Positions 1-46,096 of a DNA stretch of 64,000 bases are shown here, piece by piece. Both the position numbers and the translations under genes were made by a program. The notes under the pieces were generated by a model that was not told the DNA's origin, did no database searches, and saw only the letters and a list, made by a program, of their open reading frames with translations. The first letter of the stretch is position 1. The number at the start of each line of letters is the position of its first letter. Origin of the DNA: an uncultured Gammaproteobacteria bacterium (GTDB lineage Bacteria; Patescibacteriota; Patescibacteriia; Magasanikbacterales; UBA922); contig CAZQXB010000001.1 in assembly GCA_964597575.1 (NCBI GenBank), positions 466,111 through 530,110 of the forward strand, given 5' to 3'.

Positions 1-595
1 CTATGCTGTGCGTGAATTTGATTCAGCGAAAAAACTCTCGGAAGCTGACCTGAACATCCTTTTAGAGGCGGCTCGATTGGCCCCTTCTTCCTTTGGTCTT
101 CAGCCGTGGAAATTTGCGCTGGTCGAGAATAAAGAAAAACGCGAAGCCATTCAGGCTGCTGGTTGGAATCAGACACAAATTACAGGTGCCTCTCATCTTC
201 TCGTCGTTCTCGCAAAGGACGATATGGACACGGCATATATTGAAGCGTATGTGAAAGCAATTTCTGATACCCGTGGCGTTCCCGTCGAGATGCTCAAAGG
301 ATTCCAAGATATGATGGTGGGTTCGGTTGGTTCTCGGTCGGTAGAAGATAAAAAGAGCTGGATGGCTCGTCAGGCGTATATTCCGGTCGGTATGGTTCTC
401 GAAACTGCGGCCCTTCTTCATGTTGATGCGGTACCAATGGAAGGGTTTGATCAAGGTGTAGTAAAGCAGATTTTGAATATTGATGGGTTTACCCCCTATG
501 TTCTTATTTGCCTCGGATACCGGAGCGAAAACGATAAAGGTGCTGGATACAAAAAAGTTCGTATGAGTGCAGACGACGCTATTGTCCGCATGTAA
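1..595 (+). CDS. NAD(P)H nitroreductase (NfsB-like), 5'-partial at window edge
   Basis: Translation aligns with E. coli NfsB from about residue 14 (FDSAKKL..., [13 protein letters not shown]). The frame is open to position 2, so the N-terminus lies outside the window. Confidence 0.75.
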
Positions 596-606
596 TATTC
601 GTTCGT

Positions 607-1008
607 ATGAGTGCTCCTGTAGAGAAAACTGATGCTGAGTGGCAAAAAGAGCTAAGCCCTGAGGCGTATACCGTACTTCGGGAAAAGGGAACAGAGCGTC
701 CGTTTACGGGAAAGTATTGGAATACGAACGATCGGGGGATGTATACCTGTGCTGGATGCGGCAGTGAGTTATTTTCTTCAGATACCAAGTTTGATGCGGG
801 CTGCGGTTGGCCAAGTTTTTTCGCTCCCATTCATAATGAAAATGTAGAAACGCATACGGATACGACTCATGGTATGGTGCGCCAAGAAGTAGTCTGCCGC
901 CGTTGCGGCGGGCATTTAGGGCATGTTTTTCCCGATGGTCCAGAACCAACGGGAAGTCGTTTTTGCATCAATTCTGCGGCCCTCAATTTTCATAAGAAAG
1001 ATGTATAA
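607..1008 (+). CDS. msrB: peptide-methionine (R)-S-oxide reductase MsrB
   Basis: 133 aa with the SelR/MsrB motifs [15 protein letters not shown], [17 protein letters not shown]. Confidence 0.9.
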
Positions 1009-1011
1009 CCT

Positions 1012-1725
1012 ATGTCGCATACGATTCGACGAGCTCATGAACGTGGGTTAACGAAACTCGGATGGCTTGAAAGTCATCATTTGTTTAGTTTCGGTTCTTA
1101 CCGTGACGAAGAAAATGTGGGTTTTGGTGCGTTACGTGTCGTAAACGATGACACGGTAAAGGGCGGCATGGGGTTTGATAACCACACCCATGAAAACATG
1201 GAAATTATTTCTATCGTTTTATCGGGTGCGCTTGAGCATCGAGATAGCTTAGGTACGGCATCCGTGCTTCGTGCAGGAGATGTGCAGGTCATGACTGCTG
1301 GGGTTGGGGTAACTCATGCAGAACTCAACCATGATCATGATGAGTTAGTGCATTTTTTACAGATTTGGATTGAACCAAAAGAACAACAGCTTCCGTCAGC
1401 GTATGAAGAAAAACACTCTTCTTTTCTTGAAGAGCCAAACCGACTTCATATTCTAGCGTCTGGTTTTTCAGATGTTGGGGCCCTGCCAATTCAAAGCAAT
1501 GCTCGAGTTATGATGGCTTCGCTTGAGACAGGTGCGTCCGCCAGCTATACCGTGGATCACGATGGTAACGGGGTGATGGTCTATGTGGTAGAAGGAGAAG
1601 TAGAGGTTGCGGGCGAGGTTCTGAAACAAGGGGATAGTCTCCGTATTGCAGACCCTGCCGCGGTCGTAGCTGCGGCCACAACTGCCTCAAAGGTGCTTAT
1701 GATTGATGTGGCAATGGAACCCTAA
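1012..1725 (+). CDS. pirin family protein (cupin)
   Basis: Pirin N-terminal signature RGLTKLGWLESHHLFSFGSY...GFDNHTHENMEII; 237 aa. Confidence 0.8.
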   Translation: MSHTIRRAHERGLTKLGWLESHHLFSFGSYRDEENVGFGALRVVNDDTVKGGMGFDNHTHENMEIISIVLSGALEHRDSLGTASVLRAGDVQVMTAGVGVTHAELNHDHDELVHFLQIWIEPKEQQLPSAYEEKHSSFLEEPNRLHILASGFSDVGALPIQSNARVMMASLETGASASYTVDHDGNGVMVYVVEGEVEVAGEVLKQGDSLRIADPAAVVAAATTASKVLMIDVAMEP

Positions 1726-1734
1726 ATGTCGGAA

Positions 1735-2241
1735 TTAAATAGTCGTTGTTTGTGGGTTTGTGCCAGTGTGACTTATTTTTTCCTCGATTGTTTTTTGTAA
1801 ATACGAAAAAAATTCTGGTTCGGTCGAAAAGTGGGGGATATTAAATTTTTCGCATTCGATATCGATATTGCCTTTTCTCCAAAATCCTTCTGGGCAATGA
1901 ACAATCATTTTATGAGTTCGTGCAAAGAGGCCAAATTCCAAGAAAGAAATTGGCGATTTTGAGTCGCGGTCGAAATACATCACGATAACGTCTGCTACGC
2001 GAAGACCCTGAAGCTCCCACTCTACTTGGGCGCGAAATTCTTTATTTTCTGCCTGCTGGGGTGTCGTAAGATCCCAATCGTCACGACGCGGGTTTAAAAC
2101 GTTGATATCAAATTTCTTCAAGAACTCTACGACTTTGTCCTGCCATCGATTAGCGGTTCCCATATCAATACTGCCCGCTAAAAATACCGTTAATTTTTTT
2201 TCTGTATTTTCAAATGGGGTTGGAGGAAGAAAAACAGGCAT
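1735..2241 (-). CDS. nucleoside 2-deoxyribosyltransferase-like protein
   Basis: 168 aa with FLAGSI near the N-terminus and a C-terminal SPISFLEFGLFARTHKMIV that matches the NDT-family catalytic Glu pattern (SxGTxxExGxAxAxxK). Confidence 0.45.
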   Translation of the reverse strand: MPVFLPPTPFENTEKKLTVFLAGSIDMGTANRWQDKVVEFLKKFDINVLNPRRDDWDLTTPQQAENKEFRAQVEWELQGLRVADVIVMYFDRDSKSPISFLEFGLFARTHKMIVHCPEGFWRKGNIDIECEKFNIPHFSTEPEFFSYLQKTIEEKISHTGTNPQTTTI

Positions 2242-2293
2242 ACGATTTCATTCAAAAATCCTCCGATATGTGGTCGGAGGATTTTTGCTTTTG

Positions 2294-2794
2294 TTATTCA
2301 ACGGTCACTTCTACGTCATTGCTGTAGCTCGCACACTCTGCATCGCGGAGAATACACACGCGAATGTGATGCGTACCGCGTGGTACGTCGATCCACGTTC
2401 CTTCACGGCTTTTTTCATGTTGGCGCCACCAGTAGTTCTTGGTGTCATGAATTGGATTTGGTTTTTCTGAACGAACCAGCATAAACCCATCACTCACATC
2501 AGTGCCCTCTGCTACTTCCCAACGAAGTTTTGCCAAGCCTTTTCCGCCGCCTTCGGCTTCAAGAGTGATTGTTCCGTCTGCTACAGTGCTTCCGTCATCC
2601 ATCATAACATCATCCGATTCCGTATCTTCCATCATGGCACTGTCGTCCATCATAGAGCCGTCGTCAGCCGGTTTTGTCATGGCACTCCCAGGAGTTGGAT
2701 TCGGTGTGGAGTCGGTAGGGGTACAACCTGCTCCCACCAAAAGAATAGCTCCTAAAAGAATCGGCGTAAATCCAAGAGTCAAAATATTTTTCAT
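2294..2794 (-). CDS. hypothetical lipoprotein
   Basis: Signal peptide plus lipobox (LLVGAGC), followed by an acidic Met/Asp-rich linker and a C-terminal domain. Confidence 0.6.
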   Translation of the reverse strand: MKNILTLGFTPILLGAILLVGAGCTPTDSTPNPTPGSAMTKPADDGSMMDDSAMMEDTESDDVMMDDGSTVADGTITLEAEGGGKGLAKLRWEVAEGTDVSDGFMLVRSEKPNPIHDTKNYWWRQHEKSREGTWIDVPRGTHHIRVCILRDAECASYSNDVEVTVE

Positions 2795-2870
2795 AAAGTG
2801 GTACTCAAAATTAAAATACCGTATGAGTGCCTCCTATAGTAGCACAGTCAAAAAATCCTTGCCAAGCCAC

Positions 2871-4364
2871 TTATACACCCTCGCCTTCTTTGTGTTTTTT
2901 CAGTAATCGACCAAGATCAAGGGTTTCTGTAATTTTTATTCCTTTCATGAATTCCTCCATATGCGACACAATAATCATTGCGCCTTCGTAGTTATTGAGG
3001 GCTTCCGCGATAATAGGAAGGTGGCGGAAGTTAATGTGGTTTGATGGTTCATCCAAAATAAGGAGTGCTGGTTTTTGCAATACAAATCGTGCAAACGACA
3101 ACAGTCCTTTTTGCCCTTCAGAAAGCGAAGCCACCGTATTTTTCATGATGGAAGAATGAAGAAGGAATGAAGAGGCCGTCGCGTAAATTTCTTCTTTATC
3201 CGGAATGTCCATCATTTCAGCCAAAGCATCGTATGGAGTTTTATCCATATCAAGCCCAGAAAAATCCTGGCGATAATATCCTACACGAATACCAGGGAGG
3301 ATAGTGGCTCCAGGTTCTGTATTTTTAGCGAGGCGCTCAAGAAGGGTGGTTTTACCAATTCCGTTTGGTCCTTTAATGACGAGTCGGTGTCCGCGACGAA
3401 GGGCAATATCAACCGGGACATGAATGGGTTCGTGAGCATCGATAATCGTTACCGATTCTAAGCGAACCACCACATCGGTCGTATGCTCGTAGGGGATTGC
3501 AAAACCTTTAATTGGTTTGTCATCTTTCCGAACATCGACTTTATTTTCTTCTTGTTCTTCAAGTTCATCTTTTAACTTGGCCGCAAGTTTGCGCATCTTT
3601 CCTCCTTTGTGTGCAAAAAAGTTTACCTTTTCTTTTTTATCTAAGATTTCTTTTTCCAGCTGAGCATTTTTTCGCTCCTCTCGTTCAATCTGCGCTTTAA
3701 TCTGCTCAACCACATCCATGTAGTTACCCGCGTACTGCTCTAATTTTTTCTTACGAGCATCAAGGTAGAGGACGCTGTCGGTAAACGAGTTTAAAAATTC
3801 TGCATCATGGGAAATCACGATCACGGTTTTATCGTAGAGGATAAGAAACATCGTGAGGTGTTCAATTCCCGTTTGATCTAAATTATTTGTCGGCTCGTCG
3901 AGCAAAAGGACATCAGGTTTTTGGATGAGGGCATACGCCAGAAGAAGTCGTGCTTGTTGCCCGCCAGAAAGCGCTCGGATTTTTCGGTCGAGAGGGACAT
4001 CTAAATTAACGGTTTCGAAAACATCAGCAATGAGCTTGTCGAGGTTATACTTTTTTTCAGTGAAGGCGGTCGCAAAATATTCCTGAACGGTATGGTCAAG
4101 ATATTGTTTCGGTACGACTTGGGGTGCGATAGCAATGGTCGCGCCGTCACGAACGTGTACCTTGCCGCCGAGGGGTTTAATTTCCCCGGTCATGAGTTTA
4201 AACATGGTGGTTTTGCCAGCCCCGTTTTGCCCCATGATCGTGACTTTTGTGCCCTCGCGTACTGATCCATTGGCCTCTTCCAGTTGCAATTTTTCCTCAT
4301 CGTAGCCAAAAGAAGTGTTTTCAAACCGAACAATAACGTTATTAGAACTCATAAGAAGAAACAA
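2871..4364 (-). CDS. ABC-F family ATPase (two ABC cassettes, no transmembrane domain)
   Basis: Two Walker A motifs (GQNGAGKT, GPNGIGKT), two LSGGQ signatures and a charged linker; 497 aa. Confidence 0.85.
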   Translation of the reverse strand: MFLLMSSNNVIVRFENTSFGYDEEKLQLEEANGSVREGTKVTIMGQNGAGKTTMFKLMTGEIKPLGGKVHVRDGATIAIAPQVVPKQYLDHTVQEYFATAFTEKKYNLDKLIADVFETVNLDVPLDRKIRALSGGQQARLLLAYALIQKPDVLLLDEPTNNLDQTGIEHLTMFLILYDKTVIVISHDAEFLNSFTDSVLYLDARKKKLEQYAGNYMDVVEQIKAQIEREERKNAQLEKEILDKKEKVNFFAHKGGKMRKLAAKLKDELEEQEENKVDVRKDDKPIKGFAIPYEHTTDVVVRLESVTIIDAHEPIHVPVDIALRRGHRLVIKGPNGIGKTTLLERLAKNTEPGATILPGIRVGYYRQDFSGLDMDKTPYDALAEMMDIPDKEEIYATASSFLLHSSIMKNTVASLSEGQKGLLSFARFVLQKPALLILDEPSNHINFRHLPIIAEALNNYEGAMIIVSHMEEFMKGIKITETLDLGRLLKKHKEGEGV

Positions 4365-4373
4365 TTTTGCCTA

Positions 4374-4402
4374 AGTATAGCAGAGAAAATTTGGTGTGTC
4401 AA
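4374..4402 (-). promoter_or_regulatory. sigma70-type promoter TTGACA-N17-TATACT for the ABC-F gene
   Basis: Minus-strand TTGACAcaccaaattttctctgcTATACT, 10-30 nt upstream of the ATG at 4364. Confidence 0.55.
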
Positions 4403-4449
4403 TCTTGTGGCTCTATTCGATTGAGGTTTGTAATTTTTAGCCTAAAATG

Positions 4450-4594
4450 TGTAAGTTAAAGTGAAAAATAGCTACATTATTATAGAAAAAATGAAAGGTT
4501 GGATTACAAAAAATGGCTTAAATAAGCCATTTTTATGTTCAAATATTTTCATTTTCTCTTTATTTTTGTATACATTTTTTACTTTAACTTACAG
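4450..4594. mobile_element. 144-bp MITE-like palindromic element, copy 1 (orientation A)
   Basis: 13-bp TIR tgtaagttaaagt / actttaacttaca; internal hairpin aaaatggcttaaataagccatttt. Full reverse-complement copies at 5322-5466 and 7586-7730. Confidence 0.8.
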
Positions 4595-4715
4595 CATCGG
4601 ATGGACGGCAGATTCTTCAGATCGACATTGCTCTGCTCGACCCCCACATTGTTGTCTGAACTGAGACGCTGGACGCCAGTGAACGAATGCTGGCATCGCC
4701 AGCTGGAGTTAACAA

Positions 4716-4913
4716 CTAGAACTCGTAACTACATACAATCTCGTTGTCCGGGATCGAGCAATCACGCGTACTGCAACAATCCTCATATGACTCCTGTGGC
4801 GCATCAGACACTCTTGTCTTGGGGTTCGACACCACATGGATCGCCAACACAATCAAGCCAACGACAACAAATATACCGACGATAGCCGCCCTACGCGCAA
4901 TTTGCATACACAA
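4716..4913 (-). CDS. small hypothetical membrane protein (65 aa)
   Basis: N-terminal TM helix (AAIVGIFVVVGLIVLAIHVV) and a Cys-rich tail; sits in a GC-rich segment between MITE copies 1 and 2. Weak support. Confidence 0.25.
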   Translation of the reverse strand: MCMQIARRAAIVGIFVVVGLIVLAIHVVSNPKTRVSDAPQESYEDCCSTRDCSIPDNEIVCSYEF

Positions 4914-5321
4914 ACAATTTTGTGAGTATTATCAACAGTATATCACAAGTACAGCGAGGTGTATCTTGAGACCCTTTATGTCGATTATCAATGTTGCCCT
5001 TCTTGCGGGCCTCGCGTGCTCGGCACGCCATCCAGATCGCGAACACTCGGGACCTCATGCACGGAGCAGCGGCCGAGCGATAATCGCTGGCCTTCCTGCG
5101 CCGGATACGTTCGAGTCCGTCGCATATCTGCAGAGAATACCAACCACCGCCAACGGAGGCGAGTCAGGATCCTGCTCCGCTGTATTGATATCTCCCGACA
5201 CTCTACTAACATCTCGACACTGTGGTTGCACAAGAAGCACCACGGCAGCATCTCGTACTTGCGATTCCACTATCTGCACGCACTTCATGATTAACGGAGA
5301 ATTGCAGTCATGCAGAGTAGG

Positions 5322-5466
5322 TGTAAGTTAAAGTAAAAAATGTATACAAAAATAAAGAGAAAATGAAAATATTTGAACATAAAAATGGCTTATTTAAGCC
5401 ATTTTTTGTAATCTAACCTTTCATTTTTCCTATAATAATGTAGCTATTTTTCACTTTAACTTACAG
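5322..5466. mobile_element. 144-bp MITE-like element, copy 2 (orientation B, reverse complement of copy 1)
   Basis: Near-identical over its full length to the reverse complement of 4450-4594. Confidence 0.8.
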
Positions 5467-5553
5467 TATCCCCATCAGTTCGAGTGAGGACGACGTATCG
5501 AAATGTTTCCCGCTTGGAATCAAGAGGGAAGCCGAGGTCGACGTCAAGCGGCG

Positions 5554-5955
5554 TCATAGCTGTGGAGGCTGGTTTGGGAAAACTTCGACATCTACTATGT
5601 CTACGAAGCGAATGTTGGGAACGATGGAGGGATCTGATGAAACCTCTCTAAAGTCTGAATGAAGTGGGCCATCTTCTCCCCAAAAGCGGTACCAAGCCCG
5701 TGGAGCACCTGACACGGTGGCCATCCACTGGCCGTGTTCGCTGGTGAAGTGTAGTTTAGCTCCGGGGATGTGTACCAGGATGAGGTCCGGGGGAAGAGCG
5801 TCACCGTACGCTCCCATACCATCGGGTAGTTCCAGCGGCACAACGTGGGATACTTCGGGTACATTCTCCTCGTAACTCGATCGAACGAATCCAATGAGGC
5901 CCGACTGAGCACGGGTCCACGCGTCTTCGTCGTCCTTCGTCGTCCTTCGACTCAT
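5554..5955 (-). CDS. hypothetical protein (133 aa) translationally coupled to the upstream ORF
   Basis: ATG at 5955 overlaps the TGA stop of ORF 5952..6728 in an ATGA junction. N-terminus is encoded by the tandem repeat (cgaaggacga)x2 (RRTTKDDED). GC-rich. Confidence 0.4.
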   Translation of the reverse strand: MSRRTTKDDEDAWTRAQSGLIGFVRSSYEENVPEVSHVVPLELPDGMGAYGDALPPDLILVHIPGAKLHFTSEHGQWMATVSGAPRAWYRFWGEDGPLHSDFREVSSDPSIVPNIRFVDIVDVEVFPNQPPQL

Positions 5956-6728
5956 GGTCCTACCTCTGTCGGAATGGCTCCCAGCAAGTAGAATACAACC
6001 AGATCGGTCGAGTCTACGTTCAAGGAGGAGATGGAGGTCCACTGGACATACTTGGGCTCAATCGACGCCGCATGTGTATGAATTGCACGGTATCGCGCTT
6101 CTGTCGCGCCCTCAGACAGCGACACAGTTGCGAACGAATCAGTGTCGAAAGCGTCTGCATCAAGCCTCAGCATCGGGACAGTAAGAACGCTTGTGGACCT
6201 TGAGTTGACGGTGGTGTTCGAGACAACGACGCGAACGATGCCCGGGCCGTCAACGTCCAGCACAATAACGTCGCCGCGTGCGATGCCGTGATTGTTTGGA
6301 GGCAAGCGCCGAACGAGACTGTCCAGTCGAGAGGGTAGCTGCGCGGAAAGCAACGTTTGGCGACGACTAGTTAGTTCCCACCATAGTTCGTTGTTGGTGT
6401 GCGCGTATTCCTTGATATACTGACCTATCGACAATCTGTATATTCGCGCGCATTCGACAACCGCCGGTAGTTCCCCTGGCGAAGTCGGAGATGCATACAC
6501 GCAGAGTGGCCAAATTCGATCCACTATTCGGCGATCCATTGTTCCTATTCGACGCGTTTTCGTAGTACGCATGTTCGCTAGATTTGTTCGCGAGGCTGCG
6601 TCTGTCTCCGTAAGGGTAATGAATCGTTTGTAGTTGGAATGGTCGGGGGTGGAAGGAAATGTGACTGATGCGCCGTAGACGATGCCAGGTCTGATGTTCG
6701 TCATGTTCTTCCGGAAATAGAATACCAC
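5952..6728 (-). CDS. hypothetical protein (up to 258 aa)
   Basis: Long open frame in the GC-rich island with no recognisable family. Its stop overlaps the downstream start (ATGA). Confidence 0.4.
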   Translation of the reverse strand: MVFYFRKNMTNIRPGIVYGASVTFPSTPDHSNYKRFITLTETDAASRTNLANMRTTKTRRIGTMDRRIVDRIWPLCVYASPTSPGELPAVVECARIYRLSIGQYIKEYAHTNNELWWELTSRRQTLLSAQLPSRLDSLVRRLPPNNHGIARGDVIVLDVDGPGIVRVVVSNTTVNSRSTSVLTVPMLRLDADAFDTDSFATVSLSEGATEARYRAIHTHAASIEPKYVQWTSISSLNVDSTDLVVFYLLGAIPTEVGP

Positions 6729-6775
6729 CTCTCGTTCAGAAAGGTGGTGATGTTGCGGGGTTCGGGAAGTGTACT

Positions 6776-6958
6776 CTAGCCGTTCGGAGATTCTTCCTCC
6801 TCCAGTGCCTTGGCGAGTTCCTCCTCCGAGAGTTCAGGGATGCTCACGCCGCGTTGGAATGCCTCGACCAGAAGACGTCGAGCGCCCTTTGTCAGTCGTT
6901 CTTCCTGCGACTTCGTCAGGCCCGTCTTGGGATCGCGTTCTTCTTTGCCGTCGCTCAT
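6776..6958 (-). CDS. small acidic hypothetical protein (60 aa; MSDGKEERD...EEEESPNG)
   Basis: Internal Met of ORF 6776..7324. A consensus promoter TTGACA-N17-TATAGT lies on the minus strand at 7080-7108. The longer upstream extension is Arg/Pro-rich, typical of a spurious GC-rich frame. Confidence 0.35.
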   Translation of the reverse strand: MSDGKEERDPKTGLTKSQEERLTKGARRLLVEAFQRGVSIPELSEEELAKALEEEESPNG

Positions 6959-7079
6959 GAGTCCTCCAGGACCCAGGTCGCGCGACAACCTTGTGGAGTC
7001 CCGCAACCTGATTCGGTTGCGTAGGGCTCCAGTCTTCGTGCTGGACCGGTTGGCGGACCGAAGTCCGTTCCAACAGAAT

Positions 7080-7108
7080 ACTATACAATAGTTCAGTCCG
7101 GCTGTCAA
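7080..7108 (-). promoter_or_regulatory. sigma70-type promoter TTGACA-N17-TATAGT
   Basis: Minus-strand TTGACAgccggactgaactattgTATAGT, about 110 nt upstream of the small ORF at 6958. Confidence 0.4.
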
Positions 7109-7585
7109 CTCGGGGGTGTGGACAACTTTAACTGTTGACGAGCGGCCGGTGATGATCGATCCTGACCAACTGGCTTCAACTCCCTGCCGACGGCAGTGCG
7201 CTGGCCGGTGATGTCGTCGGTTCGACACGCCCGCAACTTCTTTCGCGCCCTTCGGCGGTTGTACTGTCGCGTCAAACGATGTGGCGGTCAATCGGCACTG
7301 ATAGGGATCGCCCTTCAGGGCCAAGGGTGCCCTACGGCGGCGGATCTTCGTCCCCGGTGGTCGTTATTTGTCGCTGTGCTCGACGCATCGGACGGGTCCA
7401 CCGTTGGCACCCGCCGCTGCGACGAACTGAAGCACCGGCTTGCGGGCGAGGTCGTTGAATCAGCAGGTGAGCTTCGCGTCGTTGCCCTTCGGACGGGTGG
7501 ACGCAACGGTTCGCCGGTCCTCCTCGCAGACTCGACGTTTCGAGCGACGCGAAGCGGGTTCGCTACTCACGGTGCGGTCGAGGCG

Positions 7586-7730
7586 TGTAAGTTAAAGTAA
7601 AAAATGTATACAAAAATAAAGAGAAAATGAAAATATTTGAACATAAAAATGGCTTATTTAAGCCATTTTTTGTAATCCAACCTTTCATTTTTTCTATAAT
7701 AATGTAGCTATTTTTCACTTTAACTTACAG
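7586..7730. mobile_element. 144-bp MITE-like element, copy 3 (orientation B)
   Basis: Identical in length and almost identical in sequence to copy 2. Confidence 0.8.
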
Positions 7731-8246
7731 TCATTTCCGGGTGGACGAGTTCCGTACGTACATGGCGATCTGAATCCACGTAACATCATGCTCACCCGTG
7801 AAAACGGCGTATGGGGCCCCGTCGTCATAGACTTTTGCCGCCTTACGCCTCGCGCAATCGTGTCAGCAGACTTTGCCCGACTTGAGGCCGGTATTGTTGT
7901 GAAGTGCCTTCGCGCATTCCTTGACACCGCGGGGCAGGACCCGCAACGTCATGAAGAATTCATGATGTTCGAGAACTTGCTAAATGGCGCCATGCCGATA
8001 CCGGCCGCGGTTGACAACATCTCCGTAAATCTACGAAAAATTGTAACCGTCGTTGGCGCTATTCGGCGTACGTTTCTTCGTATCGCTGGCCTGCCTCCGC
8101 AGGACGATAGTAGGTTTTACTTTGCCACGTTGATGCTCTCGTATCTCGGCTACTTGCGTCCACATCAGATAGCACGTTTCTCAGCCGCGCAACGAAATGC
8201 AGCTCTGTACTTGAGCGCCAACATCTGGAGAAAGCACCTAAAATAG
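7731..8246 (+). pseudogene. C-terminal fragment of a kinase-fold phosphotransferase (APH/CotS/Kdo-kinase-like), truncated at MITE copy 3
   Basis: Frame beginning exactly at the element boundary encodes SFPGGRVPYVHGDLNPRNIML...VVIDFCRL, i.e. a kinase catalytic loop and DFG-like motif. No N-lobe upstream, and an in-frame stop lies inside the MITE. Confidence 0.45.
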
Positions 8247-8323
8247 CTGCCGTCCCCTTGCCTTGACTTGCCTACCTGGACGATGGTACAGTGGTGCCAT
8301 TGGTGGGGTGACCAAGATTCTCT

Positions 8324-8989
8324 ATGCATTTCAATGAACGCTCATGGTCGCCTCGTGCGTCTCGTCGCACGATTGGTGCTTACAATCGTATCGCCCATCG
8401 TTACGCAAACTTGTGGTTTGACGATCCGATCATGGAGCCGTCTCTTTGTCAGTTCCTGGACAACATACATCAGGCAGGCCCTGTGTTGGATGTTGGATGC
8501 GGACCTGGTCGAGATGTCGGGTTTATGCAGTCCCGTGGTTACATCGCCGTCGGAATCGACGCATCCACGAAAATGGTGGCCGAAGCCAGGCGTCGCGTGA
8601 GTTCCGCTAGGTTTGAGCACATGGACATGCGCAAACTACGATTTCCAGATTCCACCTTCGCTGGAGTTTGGGCTTGTGCATCAATTCTGCACCTCGACAG
8701 CAATGATCTGAATATAGCCTTTAGCGAATTCTATCGAATACTGAAGCCTGATGGCGTAGTTTTTGTGGTAGTCAAACATGGCGTTGGCGCCATGGTCGAC
8801 GACAATGGACGGTATTTTCGACTATTCACTCCTCCGGAGATTGAGCTTCTTTTGGATGCTTCCGGTTTTAGTGTGCTTACTTGGAGCATTGAAAAAGGTC
8901 GGCCAAGACCTGGGATCGAGCAGACGTGGATTCATGCCATAGGCGTGAAAGGCTCGATCCAAAACTCATGTAGTCTTCTCTCAAGATGA
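8324..8989 (+). CDS. class I SAM-dependent methyltransferase
   Basis: Motif I VLDVGCGPGRD, a post-I acidic residue, and LKPDGVVFVVV; 221 aa. Confidence 0.8.
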   Translation: MHFNERSWSPRASRRTIGAYNRIAHRYANLWFDDPIMEPSLCQFLDNIHQAGPVLDVGCGPGRDVGFMQSRGYIAVGIDASTKMVAEARRRVSSARFEHMDMRKLRFPDSTFAGVWACASILHLDSNDLNIAFSEFYRILKPDGVVFVVVKHGVGAMVDDNGRYFRLFTPPEIELLLDASGFSVLTWSIEKGRPRPGIEQTWIHAIGVKGSIQNSCSLLSR

Positions 8990-9064
8990 ACAGAAGAGAG
9001 GCGCACGTCGTGCGCCTCATGATGGCAAAAATTCTTTGCGGCAAGTCTCACACAATACTCTGGT

Positions 9065-9112
9065 TGTAAGTTAAAGTGAAAAATAGCTACATTATTATAG
9101 GAAAAATGAAAG
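9065..9112. mobile_element. partial (about 48 bp) copy 4 of the MITE-like element, orientation A 5' end only
   Basis: tgtaagttaaagtgaaaaatagctacattattatagGaaaaatgaaag, then diverges. Confidence 0.65.
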
Positions 9113-9384
9113 TTTTTTCTTGCCAATTTATTTTTTTAATCTTTCCGGGTCCATTCCCTTGTAGCCTTCTACCAGAAAAATAGTTTATTAGGTGCATAAA
9201 TATTATTTTTTTGATCCAAGTTTTTTTTCCTTTTTTGAACCCGGTGTCCTTGTATATCTAGGGTATTTTTCTTGGATTCCTGTCAATAAAGCACTGTGTT
9301 GGCCAAGTAGATTTCGTCTTTGACTGAAGGTCTTTAGGGTGGTATAGTCATTTAGTACCCCTCATACGAGGGCGTTTTCCTGTT

Positions 9385-11994
9385 TTGCCTGTTTTTCTCT
9401 TTATGCAAGATAAAATTATTATTCGTGGTGCGCGTGAGCATAACCTCAAAAACATCTCACTTGAAATGCCGCGCAACAAGATGATTGTTTTTACGGGGCT
9501 TTCTGGTTCAGGAAAGTCGAGTTTAGCGTTCGATACTATTTTTGCCGAAGGCCAACGCCGCTACATTGAAAGTCTGTCTTCCTACGCTCGCCAATTTTTG
9601 GGTGGCATGCAAAAACCCGATGTTGATGAAATTGAAGGGTTGTCTCCGGCTATTTCGATTGATCAGAAGGCGCATAGTTCAAACCCACGTTCAACGGTTG
9701 CAACCATTACGGAAATTTACGATTATCTTCGTGTTCTTTTTGCCCGCGTCGGTCAGCCGTACTGCCCTATGTGTGGTACCAAAATTGAGCGCATGGCTAC
9801 CGATCAAATGGTAGAAAATACCATTCGGAATGCGAAAAAATATGTTGTTTCGAATAAAGCCGAAGAAATTATTCTTTTTTCTCCGGTCGTACGTGGTCGA
9901 AAAGGGGAGTATTATCAAATGCTCTACGACTTATATAATTCAGGGTTTTTAGAAGTGCGCGTGGACGGAAAAATAAAAAGTTTGCGGACGCGTATTGTGT
10001 TATCGAAAAATAATCAGCATACGATTGAAGTGGTTGTCGATAAGCTTCCGGCGACGATGTTTAAAGCGGAAACGCTTAGTGAGGCTGATCGTCAGCGCGT
10101 CGCTGAAGCGATTGAACGTGCGGTGGATTTGTCGAACGGACTTTGTACGGTGAGGTACGGAGAAGGAAATGAAGCAACGTATAGTACCGAGTATAGTTGC
10201 CCGAATGACGGTTTTAGTTTTCCAGAAATTGAACCCCGGTTATTTAGTTTCAATAGTCCATATGGGCAGTGCAGTCGCTGTACTGGTTTAGGTACGGCAG
10301 AATTATTCAGTGAAGAAGTGTGCCCGAAATGTTTAGGCAAGCGCCTCAATGATAACGCTCTCTCGGTTAAGATTTTAGAAAAAAATATCCATGAGGTTAC
10401 GACCATGGATATTGCCGCAGCGAGAGCGTTCATTGTGCTTCTTGAGCAAGAAATGAATGCGCAGGATTTGGAAATTTCAGGGGCGGTTTTTCGCGAAGTG
10501 ACGAGTCGTCTGCAATTCATGCTCGATGTGGGTCTCGATTATTTGAGTTTAGATCGAAAAGCCGGAACGCTCTCGGGTGGTGAAGCCCAGCGTATTCGTT
10601 TAGCATCACAAGTAGGTACCCGCCTAGTTGGGGCACTTTATGTACTCGATGAACCAACGATTGGGCTGCATCAGCGCGATAATGAGCAGCTTGTTACCAC
10701 CCTCCGTAATTTATGTGATGTTGGAAATACGATTATTGTGGTTGAGCATGATGAAGATACGATTCTAACCAGTGATTGGATCGTGGATATTGGTCCGGGT
10801 GCCGGGAAGCATGGGGGAGACGTAGTCTATTCAGGACCTATGAGTAAATTGCTTAGCCCTGGAACCAAAAAGATGGAAACATTTGGATGTGAAGTTATTG
10901 GTGATGAGAAGAAATCGTTGACCGGAAAATATTTACGCGGAGAAGTTGCGATTGAAGTACCAGAAAAGCGCCGAAAAGTAGATGAATCCACTCCGAAATT
11001 AAAAATCAAAGGTGCTCGAGCCCATAACCTCAAAAACATTTCAGTTGAAGTTCCACTTCGACGGTTTGTGTCGCTGACCGGTGTATCTGGTTCTGGAAAA
11101 TCAACGGTGATGCACGATATTATTTATCGGACCGTTGCGAATAAGTTGAATCACGTGAATAAGAAAACAGGGGAATACGATACCATGATCGGTACCGAAT
11201 ACATTGATAAGGTCATTGTTATTGATCAGTCCCCGATTGGCCGTACCCCGCGTTCAAACCCAGCGACGTACACCAAAGCGTATGATACTATTCGTGAAAT
11301 CTTTGCGCTTACGACCGAAGCCCGTGTACGTGGGTATAAACCCGGTCGATTTAGTTTTAATACGCCAGGAGGTCGTTGTGAACACTGTGAAGGTCGAGGG
11401 CTCCTTGAAATCGAGATGCACTTCTTGCCGAGTGTTCAAATTGTGTGCGATGTGTGTAAGGGGAAACGGTTTGATCAGGAAACATTGCAGGTTCACTATA
11501 ATGGAAAGAGCATCTTTGATGTGTTAAACATGACGATTGAAGATGGAAGTGAGTTTTTCGCAGACATTCCAGGTATTTCGGATAAGCTTAAAGTGTTAAA
11601 AGAAGTCGGTTTGGGGTACCTCACACTCGGGCAATCGGCCACTACCCTCTCAGGGGGTGAGGCGCAGCGTATTAAGCTCTCGCGTGAATTGGCGAAACGG
11701 AACACGACAAAAACATTGTATTTGCTCGATGAGCCAACCACGGGTTTGCATTATGATGATGTCAAAAAATTGATTGAGGTTCTCCAGAAACTCGTTTCAC
11801 AAGGAAATACTGTCATGGTGATTGAGCACAATCTCGACCTGATTAAATGTGTGGACTGGATTATTGATATGGGTCCAGAGGGTGGGTCAAAGGGTGGGGA
11901 AGTTGTAACGACCGGAACTCCAGAGCAGGTGTCAAAGACAGGAAAAAGCTCAACCGGGCAGTATTTGCGACGTATGTTGGCAGAGAAAAAGTAA
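9385..11994 (+). CDS. uvrA: excinuclease ABC subunit A
   Basis: 869 aa with two ABC ATPase modules ([18 protein letters not shown]), two LSGGE signatures and zinc-finger CxxC pairs. N-terminus [28 protein letters not shown]. Confidence 0.95.
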
Positions 11995-11995
11995 G

Positions 11996-13321
11996 ATGAG
12001 ATACATGATGACGAATGTTGAACAACGTCTGATCGAACTTCCGGATGTTCCAGGGATCTATTTGTTTTACTCAAAAGAGAAGGAGCTTATTTACGTTGGT
12101 AAAGCCACATCTCTTAAAAGCCGGGTGCGAAGTTATTGGGCAGGGAAGAGAACGAGTCGGCCGATTGAGCAGATGATGCATCAGGTGGAAAATGTGTCTT
12201 GGGTGGAAACAGATTCTGCACTCGAAGCCGCAATTTTAGAATCCGTTCACATCAAAAAGTTTCAGCCAAAATATAATGTTGATGGAAAAGATGATAAGAG
12301 CTGGAATTATGTTTTGATTACGAAGGATACCTATCCGCGCATTGTGACGATGCGAGAACACGAGATTATTCTTCTTCCGGAAAAAGCTCCGAAAACAGAA
12401 AAGAAGTTCCGACCTTCAAAAAAGGTGATCGTTCGCTCCCGTCAGGATATTGCCTATGAATTTGGCCCGTATCCAGGGCTAAATACCAAAGAAGCCTTAA
12501 AAATTTTGCGTCGGATCTTTCATTTCTCGAATTGTACTCCAGGCCAAGGGCGACCCTGCTTATATCGGCAAATGGATCAGTGCTTGGGAGTGTGTACTGG
12601 GGAAATTACAGCCCTTGAGTATCGCACCAAAGTTATTCGACCGCTGGTGATGTTTTTGCGTGGAGAAAAGAAACGCTTGGTCACAAATCTTGAAAAAGCC
12701 ATGACGGCCGCAGCGCGAGTTGAAGATTTCGAAGAAGCGGCCCGACTTCGCGAACAGCTGAAAGCGCTTTATAGAATCCACGATGTGGCTTTGCTTAATA
12801 AAAGTTTTGTATCGGACGATGCGGAACCAGCGCAAGGTGTTGAGCGTATTGAGGGGTATGATATTTCAAATTTGGGCTCAACCGGAATTGTAGGAAGTAT
12901 GGTCGTGTTTACGAATGGCGTACCAGATAAAAGTCAGTACCGGAAGTTTGCGATGCACTCTGTAACCGGGCAAAGCGATGTTGATTCGCTGGAAGAAATG
13001 CTTCGTCGACGATTTCGCCATCCAGAGTGGAAGTTTCCAAGTATTCTTCTTATTGATGGGGGGAGACCTCAGGTAAATAAAGTCGTAGAGGTGATGAAGG
13101 ATCTTGGAATATCAATTCCAATTGTGGGTATTGCTAAAGGGCCAGACCGAAAACGAAATGATTTTACCTTTCCGAACGATATTAGTGAGCCTGGGAACGA
13201 GCATTTGCGTGATTTCGTGCATTATGTGAACGAACATCAAGAGCTCCTCATTCGAGTGCGTGATGAAGCGCATCGGTTTGCGATTAGCTACCAGCGCGTG
13301 AAGCGGGGAATGAGGAAGTAA
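11996..13321 (+). CDS. uvrC: excinuclease ABC subunit C, short form (GIY-YIG, UVR and RNase-H-like domains; no C-terminal HhH)
   Basis: GIY-YIG (GIYLFYSKEKELIYVGKA), UVR motif (FEEAARLREQLKAL) and the endonuclease V-like region. Only 441 aa. Starts 1 nt after the uvrA stop. Confidence 0.85.
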   Translation: MRYMMTNVEQRLIELPDVPGIYLFYSKEKELIYVGKATSLKSRVRSYWAGKRTSRPIEQMMHQVENVSWVETDSALEAAILESVHIKKFQPKYNVDGKDDKSWNYVLITKDTYPRIVTMREHEIILLPEKAPKTEKKFRPSKKVIVRSRQDIAYEFGPYPGLNTKEALKILRRIFHFSNCTPGQGRPCLYRQMDQCLGVCTGEITALEYRTKVIRPLVMFLRGEKKRLVTNLEKAMTAAARVEDFEEAARLREQLKALYRIHDVALLNKSFVSDDAEPAQGVERIEGYDISNLGSTGIVGSMVVFTNGVPDKSQYRKFAMHSVTGQSDVDSLEEMLRRRFRHPEWKFPSILLIDGGRPQVNKVVEVMKDLGISIPIVGIAKGPDRKRNDFTFPNDISEPGNEHLRDFVHYVNEHQELLIRVRDEAHRFAISYQRVKRGMRK

Positions 13322-44796: not shown

Positions 44797-46092
44797 ATGC
44801 CTAAGAAAAAAAAGAGCGCCCAGGGTTTCGCGGCCCGGGTGAAGCGAGCAGTAAAGAAAATTGGAGCCGTAAAAAAAGTCGTAGCGAAACCTCAGAAAAA
44901 AGTGTTGCCGAAACCTCGGCCAGCACAGAAGCAAAAGTTTTCTAAAAAACCATTTGTTAAAGGGCCTCCAGCTCCTCCAGAGCCTGAGCCAGATTTTACC
45001 TCTCCGACCGACGATAACTTACTTAAGCTCGTTGATAAGGGGAGAGGCCGTGGATTTATTACCGAAACAGAAGTGGTTCGTGTATTTCCGTATTTAGAAC
45101 GATACCTTCCGCTGTACGAAGTCTTTTTGGATGCACTCGAAAAAAACGGTGTTTCTGTTGTAGAAACTGGGGGAGGACTTTTAGGAAACACGGTTCAGAA
45201 AAAAGAAATGCTTTCGAGTTTGCGCGGGAAACAGCCGGATGTGGAAGGTGAGTTTGATTTGGGAAGTATTTCTCAAGATTCTATTCAGATGTATCTGCGC
45301 GAAATTGGGAAGATTCCGCTTCTGAATGCTGAAGAAGAAGTGTCGCTCGCGAAACGTAAAGAACGAGGGGATCGTGAGGCTGAACGAAAAATGATTGAAG
45401 CCAACTTGCGACTGGTCGTTTCGATTGCGAAAAAGTTTGTCGGAAAACAGCTTTCTCTTTTGGATTTAATCCAAGAAGGAAATATTGGCTTGTTCCGTGC
45501 CGTGAAGAAGTTCGACTATCGCAAAGGGTACAAGTTTTCAACGTACGCTACGTGGTGGATTCGCCAAGCCATTACGCGTGCTTTGGCCGACCAGTCCCGT
45601 ACTATTCGTATTCCGGTTCACATGGTCGAAACCATCAACCGTTTTCAACAAGTACAGCGTCGTTTGCTCCAAGATTTAGGTCGTGATCCAACCCCTGAAG
45701 AGTTGGCTGCCGAAATGGGTGAGGAAATCGAAAAGATTAATCACATCATTAAAATTTCTCAAGAAACCATTTCTCTTGAAACAAGTGTGGGGGATGACGA
45801 TGATGATACGCAGTTGGCCGACTTTATCGAAGACGTGAAAAATGTGAGCCCGGCACAAGTGGCCGGAGTGCAGTTGCTCCGTGAATACATTCATGAAGCA
45901 ATTAAAGATCTGTCTCCGCGTGAACAAAAAATTCTTGAAATGCGTTTTGGTCTCTCAGACGGTGTCACGCACACGCTTGAAGAAGTAGGAAAAGAATTTG
46001 ATGTAACCCGTGAACGTATTCGCCAAATTGAAGCGAAGGCGCTCGAAAAGATTCAGAACATGGGAATTATTGATAAGTTGCGAGACTACTAA
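44797..46092 (+). CDS. rpoD: RNA polymerase sigma factor RpoD (sigma70, Lys-rich N-terminus)
   Basis: Regions 1.2-4 present: [44 protein letters not shown]. Confidence 0.9.
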
Positions 46093-46096
46093 AAAT

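Follow-up and report, generated by a model that had tools for sequence, protein, structure and literature searches.

Results and Discussion

The gap between the genes of an ABC-F ATPase and uvrA contains about 4.2 kb of DNA that is compositionally foreign to the surrounding backbone and mostly orphan, and it is split into three segments by a repeat that is built like a MITE and is also present, in other surroundings, in further genomes. This interval is an ordinary variable genome islet, and we regard it as somewhat probable that it represents a variable slot in which acquired DNA is decaying and has been both invaded and rearranged by the MITE. The window, that is the whole 64-kb stretch of DNA analysed, is organised around the interval as follows:

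2871–4364, minus strand: ABC-F ATPase, left backbone border (Pfam ABC_tran twice, E = 7.9e-44)
4402–4374, minus strand: promoter-like TTGACA-17-TATACT of the ABC-F gene (promoter scan)
4404–4449: AT-rich spacer, 46 nt, 35% GC, where homology to the relative L036 is already over
4450–4593, plus strand: MITE copy 1 (arm A, central hairpin, arm B'; repeat search and pattern search)
4594–5321: segment A, 728 bp, with a Cys-rich ORF and a possible S1-protease fragment
5322–5465, minus strand: MITE copy 2, opposite in orientation to copy 1 and 99% identical (2 differences)
5466–7585: segment B, 2120 bp, the most deviant composition of the 64 kb
7586–7729, minus strand: MITE copy 3, 100% identical to copy 1, inverted to it and in direct orientation to copy 2
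7730–9064: segment C, with a kinase fragment and a methyltransferase
9065–9115, plus strand: solo A-type arm, 51 nt, shortened at the inner end and matching the other A arms at 96–98% identity
9116–9335: AT-rich spacer, 220 nt, 34% GC, not common to L036
9385–11994, plus strand: uvrA, right backbone border, followed by uvrC (11996–13321)

Composition of the interval

The GC content at 4594–9064 is 52–57% with peaks of 61–65%, compared to 46% in the remaining 64 kb. The window has a mean of 46.6% (sd 3.8% across 1-kb windows), and 5501–8000 exceeds this mean by more than 2 sd. The original prediction of about 55–60% GC holds for segment B (56.9%) but is too high for segments A (51.8%) and C (51.9%); still, no more than 8.6% of the backbone's 700-bp windows have a GC content of at least 51.8%. 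Measured by tetranucleotide and dinucleotide signature, no stretch of the 64 kb deviates more than this interval. By tetranucleotide deviation 5501–7500 is the top-ranking 2-kb window of the 64 kb (z = 4.9 against the rest, and 4.1 after normalisation for base composition). The dinucleotide signature distances of segments A, B and C to the backbone are 212, 155 and 117, with 86±27, 50±16 and 61±19 for backbone chunks of the same lengths, giving z values of about 3–7. Among each other the segments show a delta* of 112–178, and thus they differ from one another as much as from the backbone. In GC, tetranucleotide and dinucleotide usage the interval is an outlier, its signatures lying far beyond the window-wide variance, and as had been proposed its DNA is foreign to the backbone.

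Relatives differ in the same slot

In the closest relative found (L036, ABC-F protein 89% identical) the sequence is colinear with 1–4403 and 9336–13321, and uvrA and uvrC show 74–77% nucleotide identity. The homologues of the left border protein are named ABC-F and come from Magasanikbacteria, Uhrbacteria and Patescibacteria. Homology to L036 restarts at 9336, near the promoter-like site of uvrA (9320–9348), and in two further relatives, L038 and L039, a third sequence takes over at the point where L036 also departs (blastn breakpoints 4388 for these two and 4403 for L036). The slot in L036 carries an ADP-ribosylglycohydrolase gene (57% GC), gmk and a gene with a 3-dmu-9_3-mt domain, none of which is present anywhere in the 64-kb window. 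The suggested comparison of gene order therefore revealed colinear flanks with different slot content.

Hotspots of horizontal transfer, or genomic islets, between conserved core genes are a general concept, and the locus resembles them in its colinear core flanks, its content varying between relatives, its atypical composition and its orphans and gene fragments. Unlike such hotspots it has no integrase, tRNA or direct-repeat att sites, measures 4.7 kb and is fragmented by MITEs instead of being bounded by recombination sites. That the interval is native DNA, ancestral to the lineage and odd in composition for instance owing to its gene content, deserves hardly any credence: GC-rich genes do occur elsewhere in the 64 kb and the available relatives are only 75–79% identical in DNA, but three related genomes differ in slot content between colinear flanks, the deviation persists in the GC-normalised tetranucleotide and the dinucleotide statistics, and the proteins of the interval have no relatives among other Patescibacteria.

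Gene content of the three segments

The open reading frames and associated signals of the segments are listed below.

4716–4913, minus strand: 65-aa Cys-rich single-helix membrane ORF (ORF list)
4978–5321, plus strand: possible S1-protease N-terminal fragment, with a signal-like MSIINVALLAGLACSA and then IIAG...CSAVLISPDTLLTSRHC, entering MITE copy 2
5554–5955, minus strand: 133-aa orphan ORF, operon gene 3, also among the gene calls of the Logan contig
5952–6704, minus strand: 250-aa orphan ORF (258 aa if started at GTG 6728)
6748–6724, minus strand: hairpin after the 60-aa ORF
6776–6958, minus strand: 60-aa acidic ORF, operon gene 1, with a GGAGG ribosome-binding site
7108–7080, minus strand: promoter-like TTGACA-17-TATAGT upstream of the 60-aa ORF (11/12 consensus)
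6960–7585: unassigned stretch with no family match, 62–65% GC
7731–8246, plus strand: C-terminal ~170 aa of a TCAD9-type protein-kinase-like protein (YVHGDLNPRNIM...IDF; Pfam TCAD9)
8263–8292, plus strand: promoter-like site ahead of the methyltransferase
8324–8989, plus strand: class I SAM-dependent methyltransferase of the small-molecule type, 221 aa, intact
8998–9018, plus strand: hairpin past the methyltransferase stop

These contents agree with the original prediction, which had named the Cys-rich membrane ORF, the gene pair joined by an ATGA overlap, the 60-aa acidic ORF with its promoter-like site, a kinase-fold fragment and an intact SAM-methyltransferase. Segment B carries an orphan minus-strand operon of three genes encoding 60, 250 and 133 aa in that order, with the start of the 133-aa ORF lying over the stop of the 250-aa gene (5952–5955, minus strand). 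The promoter-like site of the operon is a consensus match only, as 7 such sites were found in the region versus 4.9 expected. For the 133-aa ORF there was no match in Pfam, NCBIfam, PHROG, PADLOC or PDB and no viral relative. HMMER, run over all 1.84 billion representatives, gave the 250-aa protein one marginal non-self match, a 63-aa stretch 43% identical to an Ig-like unit that is repeated in an adhesin of 2291 aa, and its AlphaFold single-sequence model was unusable (pLDDT 31). The stretch at 6960–7585 has no Pfam match in ten stop-to-stop frames and no Rfam match. Its top coding candidate by phase GC is 7196–7585 (plus strand), where the ORF 7196–7600 enters MITE copy 3, and its predicted RNA fold beats shuffled sequences (z = -4.05 for the plus and -2.96 for the minus strand, 20 shuffles).

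TCAD9 is a protein-kinase-like domain of NTP-dependent ternary conflict systems. The fragment in segment C aligns with the last ~110 profile positions (316–423 of 429, E = 1.7e-6; 27.9 bits, below the 40-bit cut-off) and retains both the HGDLxxxN catalytic loop and the xDF motif that follows it, but unlike in TCAD9 systems only this C-terminal part is found and no partner genes are nearby. The family (Pfam PF19974) has been listed among protein-kinase-like families (bioRxiv 10.64898/2026.09.18.752743). Against PDB the fragment gave a Bud32 catalytic-loop match (E = 0.04). It comprises the C-terminal third of the kinase and matches the C-terminal quarter of the profile, starting 8 residues ahead of the catalytic loop at 7731, one base past the end of MITE copy 3, and is thus cut exactly at the terminus; the N-terminal half with the N-lobe is absent from every frame of the interval. 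In segment A the assignment to S1 proteases is tentative, since Pfam Trypsin scores 16–17 bits with a cut-off of 20.6 and covers profile positions 24–49 only; the ORF 4744–5331 runs into MITE copy 2. Of the proposal that foreign DNA was captured at, or disrupted by, the repeats, disruption is supported because the kinase ends exactly at a terminus without its N-terminal half and a second ORF enters the repeat, while an active role in capture was not demonstrated. Both the kinase piece and the possible protease piece are presumably non-functional remnants.

The methyltransferase covers the Methyltransf_25 profile fully (1–97 of 97, E = 1.8e-21), its NCBIfam matches all fall under their own cut-offs, and a PADLOC mad2 match (1e-18) is confined to the methyltransferase domain. 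Expression may persist for the methyltransferase and for the intact operon of segment B. A host-like or actinobacterial donor, which the original prediction had considered, was not found: against 5.8 billion clustered proteins the 250-aa protein matched only itself, and the best non-self homologue of the methyltransferase is 50% identical (plasmid matches ≤35%). Searches for plasmid DNA matching the interval and for plasmid matches of the kinase fragment were negative, viral-contig relatives were not found, and the sole match to phage DNA (27 nt) is due to chance. As no donor was identified, the term acquired rests on composition and on absence from the 75–79% identical relatives.

The repeat has MITE anatomy

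The element is 144 bp long with 21% GC, contains no ORF and has 47-nt terminal inverted repeats beginning with TGTAAGTTAAAGT. Copy 1 folds into a single long hairpin (dG -49.6 kcal/mol, z = -9.5) and the central hairpin shows a compensatory G-C to A-T change. Copies 1 and 3 have a derived base in common. Arm matches in the 64 kb number 7 versus 0.04 expected, and a pattern search revealed no further copies in the window, so that 3.5 copies lie within 4.7 kb while the remaining 59 kb is free of them. Other GC-rich patches of the window, at 30–31 kb (61%) and 46–50.5 kb (53–55%), are without MITE, and no copy adjoins the GC-rich FGE-sulfatase gene and helicase block.

Known bacterial MITEs include the Correia elements of Neisseria, ERIC/IRU of enterobacteria, RUP of Streptococcus and Nezha of cyanobacteria. 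Like these the repeat falls within ~100–150 bp, is AT-rich and non-coding, has long terminal inverted repeats and a hairpin fold with a terminator-like internal hairpin, and occurs in several near-identical copies in intergenic as well as gene-interrupting positions. It differs from them in the crowding of its copies into a single islet instead of along the window, in the high frequency of solo arms and half-elements and in its host, a member of the Patescibacteria; unlike Correia elements, which duplicate the target TA, it has no target-site duplication. No such duplication was found at any copy or around MITE-segment-MITE units, so transposition is unproven. Furthermore, the larger ORFs scanned in the 64 kb yielded neither a transposase nor an integrase, and no autonomous element sharing these ends was found; mobility is therefore deduced solely from anatomy and distribution. 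Plasmid and phage collections contained no sequence similar to the MITE. A full-text literature search returned no paper on MITEs in Patescibacteria, and the family and its habit of sitting in foreign DNA appear to be undescribed.

Independent support for individual junctions comes from Logan assemblies (SRR13355620): the joint of the backbone with MITE copy 1 and the two ends of each of segments B and C are all reproduced there without a mismatch. One contig equals 1–4479 (0 mismatches; the junction with copy 1 is in L043), L035 equals 5438–7614 (0 mismatches) and L001 equals 7702–9094; as L035 spans them, the junctions of segment B with both MITE ends are present in an independent assembly. 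An assembly artefact would mean that real repeats led to segments being threaded into the gap in the wrong order or place, with the segments belonging elsewhere in the genome or on another repeat-bearing replicon. We find this quite improbable. The de Bruijn contigs do break in every MITE copy, 28–30 nt into the arms, and since the A arm of copy 2 is identical to the solo arm over more than 31 nt, k-mers alone would allow two pairings. The order and orientation of the three segments are taken from the source assembly. However, the source record is a single contig of 913,817 bp, the backbone contig truly ends in a MITE arm (4450–4479), backbone and interval contigs co-occur in the same three samples, and read pairs easily bridge a 144-bp repeat. 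The arms are moreover 99–100% identical here versus 88% between species, and MITE-bounded GC-rich segments would stay in the genome even if their order were wrong.

The MITE family at other loci

Further copies, 88–93% identical and with different flanks, are present in another assembly (L002), and partial copies in L014 and L017 (45–93-nt arm or hairpin matches, 76–98% identity, again with different flanks). The MITE-bounded segments have 55.1% GC versus 44% in the backbone for L002/L014 and 54.9% versus 43% for L017, and in L002 a secreted-protein ORF is cut at the MITE, as is the kinase here. As the family is rare in public data (species representatives totalling 596 Gb gave 1 contig, JGI metagenomes 2), the association of MITE and GC-rich DNA rests on three loci.

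Integron mobilisation units and the MITE-bracketed resistance genes of Acinetobacter and Enterobacter are examples of composite units flanked by MITEs; they transport complete, functional genes, target duplications lie outside the MITE pair, and the units occur at several sites. The foreign segments between two copies of one MITE are similar, but here the cargo consists partly of gene fragments and neither a duplication nor a second site was found. Import of MITE-cargo-MITE units, mobilised in trans from a GC-richer genome with the same MITE, would explain why outward termini bound every segment, why segment signatures differ (as expected for separate imports) and why the L002/L014 and L017 loci show the same pattern; the gene fragments ending exactly at MITE termini would then reflect MITE positions in the donor. 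We nevertheless judge it unlikely, as target duplications around the units are absent, an element of 21% GC is unlikely to be native to donors of 55% GC and no segment was found at any second site. Just one segment was seen a second time, with 99% identity between L002 and L014; in both it occupies the same tRNA-Val locus in an identical backbone, and these two contigs therefore represent the same species and not a transposed copy.

Sedentary chromosomal integron arrays, as in Vibrio cholerae, contain repeats (attC) that are imperfect palindromes of ~120 bp. Imperfect palindromes of similar length between short orphan-gene blocks of foreign composition are also seen here, but there is no IntI, the repeat ends have no RYYYAAC/GTTRRRY cores, the orientations are mixed and the blocks hold truncated genes and minus-strand operons. 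A dedicated capture platform, where the repeat acts as a recombination site (integron attC, pdif or abutted IS ends that attack circular DNA on entry) and the foreign DNA is placed between repeat ends as cassettes, would agree with the clustering of the copies, with TGTAAG termini bounding the segments in every case, with the half-elements in L014 and L017 breaking at the same inner position and with the L017 segment starting with GCGTGCC and ending with GCGTGAC, a 6/7 direct repeat expected if abutted ends opened a circular target. We consider it very improbable, since the larger ORFs of the 64 kb scanned include no integrase or recombinase, R''/R' core sites and a dif-like ATAA-N6-TTAT core are absent from the ends, repeat orientations are mixed, the cassettes would be gene fragments and not whole ORFs, and a terminal direct repeat is present in only one of five MITE-bounded segments. 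A circular permutation of segment A, with the DIALL-containing start added to the end, did not raise the Trypsin score either (16.9 versus 17.1 bits; control 16.6).

For the preferred explanation, a colonised slot with decaying acquired DNA, we propose that the site between the divergent ABC-F and uvrA promoters would be permissive and variable in a Patescibacteria chromosome of ~0.9 Mb and would hold remnants of horizontally acquired DNA whose unsampled sources, two or more, differed in composition. The MITE might have been moved in trans by a transposase with its gene elsewhere in the genome, and the copies may have multiplied locally. Missing gene halves would have been removed and pieces shuffled by transposase-mediated adjacent deletions or inversions or by homologous recombination between copies that are nearly identical. 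In such a gene-dense genome presumably only MITE insertions in dispensable DNA survive, which could be the reason why the family brackets GC-rich segments at three independent loci. At the tRNA-Val locus one of the two contigs L002 and L014 has a full MITE and the other a half MITE plus 415 bp, a difference that looks like an adjacent deletion.

Composition and coding content of the island

Genomes of Patescibacteria (CPR) are tiny and gene-dense, and the common view is that they contain little mobile DNA. The sequence studied here is a CPR/Patescibacteria chromosome; homologues of its ABC-F protein at 61–66% identity bear the names of Magasanikbacteria, Uhrbacteria and the 'Patescibacteria group', and the island proteins are encoded on a 913,817-bp NCBI contig. 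Between the ABC-F gene (2871–4364, minus strand) and uvrA (9385–11994, plus strand) the GC content goes up to 50–61%, with 46.6% for the whole window and a standard deviation of 3.8% among its 1-kb windows. The rise is discontinuous and is interrupted by 144-bp repeats, which separate the GC-rich segments A, B and C.

Repeats and GC-rich segments between the ABC-F gene and uvrA
4450–4593: copy 1 of the repeat, 144 bp, 21% GC
4594–5321: segment A, 728 bp, 51.8% GC
5322–5465: copy 2, 144 bp
5466–7585: segment B, 2120 bp, 56.9% GC
7586–7729: copy 3, 144 bp
7730–9064: segment C, 1335 bp, 51.9% GC
9065–9115: solo arm of the repeat, 51 nt, closing the GC-rich interval

In tetranucleotide usage positions 5501–7500 deviate more than any other 2-kb stretch of the 64 kb (z = 4.9, and 4.1 once base composition was normalised). 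The dinucleotide distances (×1000) of A, B and C to the backbone are 212, 155 and 117, compared with 86 ± 27, 50 ± 16 and 61 ± 19 for backbone chunks of the same lengths, and only 8.6% of the 700-bp backbone windows reach 51.8% GC. As in a genomic islet, the composition lies outside the variance of its surroundings, judged on the scale of the 64-kb window. These GC, tetranucleotide and dinucleotide outliers bear out the foreign DNA suggested in the original prediction, and all the ORFs listed there are present in the island. Its description as a mosaic also fits, as the mutual distances of the segments (112–178) are as large as those to the backbone. The island shows no similarity to the rest of the window and an origin as a copy of other window DNA was therefore rejected. 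The dinucleotide signature of segment B is almost identical (distance 39) to that of an FGE-sulfatase-domain gene (29946–30992, plus strand; 60% GC, GC3 64%, backbone 45%) which has no adjoining repeat, and this hints at a similar type of source for both.

Segment B contains an operon of three genes on the minus strand, followed in the window by a stretch of higher GC content:

7108–7080, minus strand: promoter-like TTGACA-17-TATAGT upstream of the 60-aa ORF
6958–6776, minus strand: 60-aa acidic ORF with a GGAGG ribosome-binding site
6704–5952, minus strand: 250-aa ORF, middle gene of the operon
5955–5554, minus strand: 133-aa ORF with an ATGA overlap to the 250-aa ORF
6960–7585: remaining 626 nt of segment B, 62–65% GC

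The same three genes were called independently on a Logan contig. As a run of 258 sense codons has by our estimate a chance expectation of only about 0.01 per segment at this GC content, the operon genes are real or recently real, even though they are orphans. None of the three proteins matched Pfam, NCBIfam, PHROG, PADLOC or PDB entries. For the 250-aa protein a search among 5.8 billion clustered proteins returned only the protein itself, and the sole other match in an exhaustive HMMER scan over 1.84 billion representatives comprises 63 residues with 43% identity to a repeated Ig-like unit in a 2291-aa adhesin, at best a hint at a beta-sandwich subdomain. Its single-sequence AlphaFold model (pLDDT 31) was unusable. 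The remaining 626 nt gave neither a protein-family match in any frame nor an Rfam match, the Rfam scan of the island as a whole being empty, and their predicted fold on the plus strand lies well below that of 20 shuffles (z = −4.05). This stretch may represent either the remains of a gene or an RNA with structure.

Segment C begins one base past the repeat with SFPGGRVPYVHGDLNPRNIMLTRENGVWGPVVIDF, which reads as a kinase-like catalytic loop and is followed by an xDF motif. This fragment aligns only with positions 316–423 of the 429 positions of the TCAD9 profile and scores 27.9 bits, below the 40-bit Pfam cut-off and far from a whole-domain match. We regard it as a truncated remnant of a putative TCAD9-type kinase. 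The N-terminal two thirds are absent from the island in every frame examined, and the idea that the missing half lies elsewhere in the island was rejected. Downstream of it an intact class I SAM methyltransferase of 221 aa is encoded, showing the complete Rossmann-type SAM-binding domain of this class above cut-off (Methyltransf_25: 77.1 bits, cut-off 27, positions 1–97 of 97, E = 1.8e-21; Methyltransf_11: 71.7 bits). It received no equivalog-level NCBIfam assignment and shares at most 50% identity with any homologue found. A role as a defence gene, proposed by the PADLOC profile mad2, was not accepted, as the match covers the generic methyltransferase domain only.

In segment A there is a Cys-rich 65-aa ORF with one helix, and on the opposite strand a signal-peptide-like start is followed by IIAG...CSAVLISPDTLLTSRHC and runs straight into copy 2. 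The latter frame resembles the N-terminal ~115 residues of an S1 protease, which we treat as a lead only: the Trypsin profile scored 16–17 bits against a cut-off of 20.6 bits, only the His57 region (TSRHC) is covered, and GDSGG is absent from all six frames, leaving the His-Asp-Ser triad incomplete. A peptide 'DIALL' just after copy 1 has the Asp102 spacing for a protease fragment ending at copy 2; it is one base out of frame, and chance alone would give about 0.6 motifs of this kind. As its addition also did not raise the Trypsin score, a circular permutation of segment A was rejected.

The 144-bp repeat family

Seven matches to the repeat arm were found in the window, with 0.04 expected, and the 64 kb contain no further copy. 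Each copy possesses 47-nt terminal inverted repeats, which are 79–81% complementary and both begin with TGTAAGTTAAAGT, around a central hairpin AAAAATGGCTTAAATAAGCCATTTTT resembling a bidirectional terminator. The entire element folds as a single long hairpin (dG −49.6 kcal/mol, z = −9.5) and has no coding capacity of its own, the ORFs through it being read-throughs from the flanks. Copies 1 and 3 match at 100% and are mutually inverted; copy 2 differs from them at two positions and has the orientation of copy 3. One position has a G in copy 2, in the solo arm and in the copies of other genomes but an A in copies 1 and 3, which are therefore the youngest pair. Between lineages a G-C pair of the central hairpin is replaced by A-T, a compensatory change.

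Exact-pattern scans of 596 Gb of species-representative genomes, of JGI metagenomes and of IMG/VR revealed true relatives of the element on three contigs only (L002, L014 and L017), while the matches in L003–L013, L015–L016 and L018–L034 were chance 20-mers without the remainder of the element. The copies in L002 are 88–93% identical to those of the window, those in L014 and L017 are partial, and the flanks are unrelated. On the 2.3-kb contig L002, whose bin label 'Gammaproteobacteria' is probably due to mis-binning, two copies enclose a segment of 1104 bp with 55.1% GC in a backbone of 44% GC, and an ORF for a secreted protein is cut at the repeat. L014 is the same locus from a different metagenome (99% identical) and has half an element plus 415 bp in place of the full copy of L002 (regions compared: L014 1239–1653 and L002 1297–1355); the 415-bp insert contains GC-rich hairpins and gave no Rfam match. 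Both contigs end at the same backbone base, 27 nt from tRNA-Val(TAC), and in one assembly the full repeat abuts the backbone base CCTTCCTTCT. In L017 two half elements enclose 550 bp of 54.9% GC (8072–8621; backbone 43%) within a gene-poor stretch of 48–49% GC (6.8–11.2 kb) adjoining a UvrB gene. This segment starts with GCGTGCC and ends with GCGTGAC, a 6/7 direct repeat that is absent from the other four repeat-bounded segments. The UvrB gene (3026–6724, minus strand) encodes 1232 aa, about 550 aa more than usual, and shows an intein-sized insertion after Walker A. A tblastx similarity between the flanks of segment A and the L002 segment was discarded as an extension of the repeat match. At three independent loci the family brackets DNA about 10 GC points above its host, and this pairing of a 21% GC repeat with 52–57% GC DNA is a small testable regularity. 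Either selection could be behind it, with insertions tolerated in junk DNA only, or a mechanism by which the repeat aids import.

With MITEs the element shares the inverted repeats, the small non-coding size and the occurrence of several copies in differing contexts within and between genomes, but not the target-site duplication, as none of the full copies of the window and of L002 has a direct repeat beside it. Such duplications could have been erased by later rearrangement, so that their absence lowers the case for a MITE without excluding it. No transposase or autonomous partner was detected among the Pfam-scanned larger ORFs of the window, and none was evident in L002, L014 and L017. The TG...CA / GTAAG termini may hint at ends of the IS3, Tn7 or IS66 type. 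We conclude that the locus is a genomic islet together with a bacterial MITE family. Such elements are little documented in this phylum; our literature search returned no paper on MITEs in Patescibacteria and none citing the run SRR13355620.

An integron cassette array was rejected, since neither an IntI integrase nor a tyrosine recombinase was found among the scanned ORFs of the window and the cargo is fragmentary. Unlike attC sites the repeat has no RYYYAAC...GTTRRRY end cores, the sole core-like match being one internal GTTGGAT, and whereas attC sites are uniformly oriented, copy 1 points the opposite way to copies 2 and 3. A dif/pdif-like site within the repeat was rejected as well, as the ATAA-N6-TTAT core is absent.

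The slot in related genomes and the reality of the junctions

The closest relative found, L036 (ABC-F 89% identical at the amino acid and 79% at the nucleotide level), is colinear with window positions 1–4403 and 9336–13321, but its slot comprises 3.0 kb instead of 4.9 kb and contains genes for an ADP-ribosylglycohydrolase (57% GC), a guanylate kinase (48%) and a 3-dmu-9_3-mt-domain protein (42%), none of which occurs elsewhere in the 64-kb window. According to the 57% GC gene the slot of L036 also holds GC-rich, probably acquired DNA; this gene (8871–9809 in locus coordinates) lies beside gmk and has no repeat. In L038 and L039 (ABC-F 90% identical at the amino acid level) the similarity to both the window and L036 breaks off at one and the same point, some 25 nt upstream of the start of ABC-F, and a third, unrelated sequence follows, and in relatives at 69% identity uvrA is no longer nearby. 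The relatives compared are 75–79% identical at the DNA level, the closest that were found. As the contents differ between L036 and the other two, the slot between the divergent promoters is variable among related species, and as typical for an islet the island is absent from relatives with colinear flanks. A conserved gene order of matching composition had been named as evidence against foreign DNA; L036, L038 and L039 carry other DNA in the slot.

Large protein searches, the exhaustive HMMER scan, BLAST against plasmids and phages and viral scans returned no close relative that could point to a donor. Plasmid and phage DNA gave only one chance phage match of 27 nt, plasmid matches of the methyltransferase domain reach at most 35% identity, and no relatives were found on viral contigs. 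Thus neither a donor lineage nor close homologues, as expected for an islet, were identified, and the predicted host-like or actinobacterial affinity did not appear. Integration machinery was also not found, as the window contains no tRNA gene and its Pfam-scanned larger ORFs no integrase. Direct-repeat att sites are likewise absent from this locus. The MITE cluster of L002/L014, in contrast, lies next to tRNA-Val.

Three Logan contigs of SRR13355620, recorded in the same three samples, match the window:

1–4479: L043, 0 mismatches, stops 30 nt inside copy 1
5438–7614: L035, 0 mismatches, 28–29 nt of repeat on either side of segment B
7702–9094: L001, 0 mismatches, 28–30 nt of repeat on either side of segment C

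As these contigs are free of mismatches, the places where repeat ends join GC-rich DNA are real and reproducible. This support covers the ABC-F side with copy 1 and segments B and C, and the order of the pieces is that of one assembly. The repeat is a likely source of contig breaks and possibly of mis-ordering in assemblies of this lineage; mis-ordering of the pieces is an unlikely account of the present locus, and the phenomenon would persist regardless.

Origin of the array

On balance we lean towards the reading that the locus is a permissive variable slot holding horizontally acquired remnants from unsampled sources, which was colonised by the MITE. Copies would have been mobilised in trans and multiplied locally in the slot, and adjacent deletions or inversions caused by the transposase, or recombination between the 99–100% identical copies, would then have removed gene halves and left the solo arm. 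Such rearrangement would explain why genes are cut exactly at the repeat termini and target duplications are absent, as well as the mixed orientations and the polymorphism of full and half elements between L002 and L014. Selection offers the simplest explanation for the link between the repeat and DNA of high GC content, as a gene-dense genome of 0.9 Mb would tolerate insertions only in dispensable DNA.

The bracketing of the segments would also match an import of each piece as a MITE-cargo-MITE unit. We consider this unlikely, since a composite transposon requires a target duplication flanking the unit and more than one site, whereas no duplication and no second site for any segment was found, and an element of 21% GC would be an odd inhabitant of donors with 55% GC.

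From the original prediction that foreign DNA was captured at, or disrupted by, the repeats, the foreign nature and the disruption stand, whereas capture is unproven. That the 144-bp element is a working part of foreign-DNA capture in the ultra-small genomes of Patescibacteria appears very improbable to us. In such a platform, which would be a MITE-based functional analogue of an integron or of pdif modules, incoming DNA would be spliced in at abutted or paired element ends by a transposase or recombinase acting in trans. Arrays of repeat-bounded foreign fragments would result, from DNA that was perhaps acquired via natural competence. The clustering of the copies, the shared inner boundary of the half elements and the 6/7 direct repeat at the ends of the L017 segment are in line with it, but no recombinase was found among the scanned ORFs of the window and no core sites in the repeat, orientation is mixed, the cargo is fragmentary, and every test for membership in such a system, including that for circular permutation, was negative.

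With the preferred reading of a colonised permissive slot, the locus is a clear and well-delimited variable slot in which acquired orphan genes occur together with a MITE family that looks active. It suggests a way for such genomes to turn over accessory DNA, in which the repeats disrupt genes, leave solo arms behind and prepare the ground for inversions.

Other features of the window

A block of 53–55% GC at 46000–50500 with orphan ORFs and a DEAD/HA2 helicase (48618–50471) has a tetranucleotide z of about 3 and may be another acquired region. In it a 45-nt terminator-like hairpin AAAAAATCACCAGCGAATGGTGATTTTTT occurs at 47486–47530 and 48350–48394 (98% identical), each time after one of two consecutive ORFs of 52–53% GC, which have no family match and are mutually unrelated. 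With this hairpin the window has a second small repeat that accompanies GC-rich orphan genes. Two sigma-70 family genes are found within 6 kb (44797–46092 and 50793–52064); the second has no region 3 and flanks the block. The gene at 59672–61786 (plus strand), in a patch of 52% GC, encodes a TrwB/TraG-like type IV coupling protein (E = 2.5e-13), which may belong to a machinery for conjugation or DNA uptake. Besides the island, the window has one other strong tetranucleotide outlier, the gene of a 1196-aa ResIII/SNF2-type helicase (52844–56434, plus strand). The C-terminal half of this protein is made up of at least nine tandem 'integrase repeat' units (PF14882, E = 5.5e-32), which recur in the DNA every 168–171 nt.
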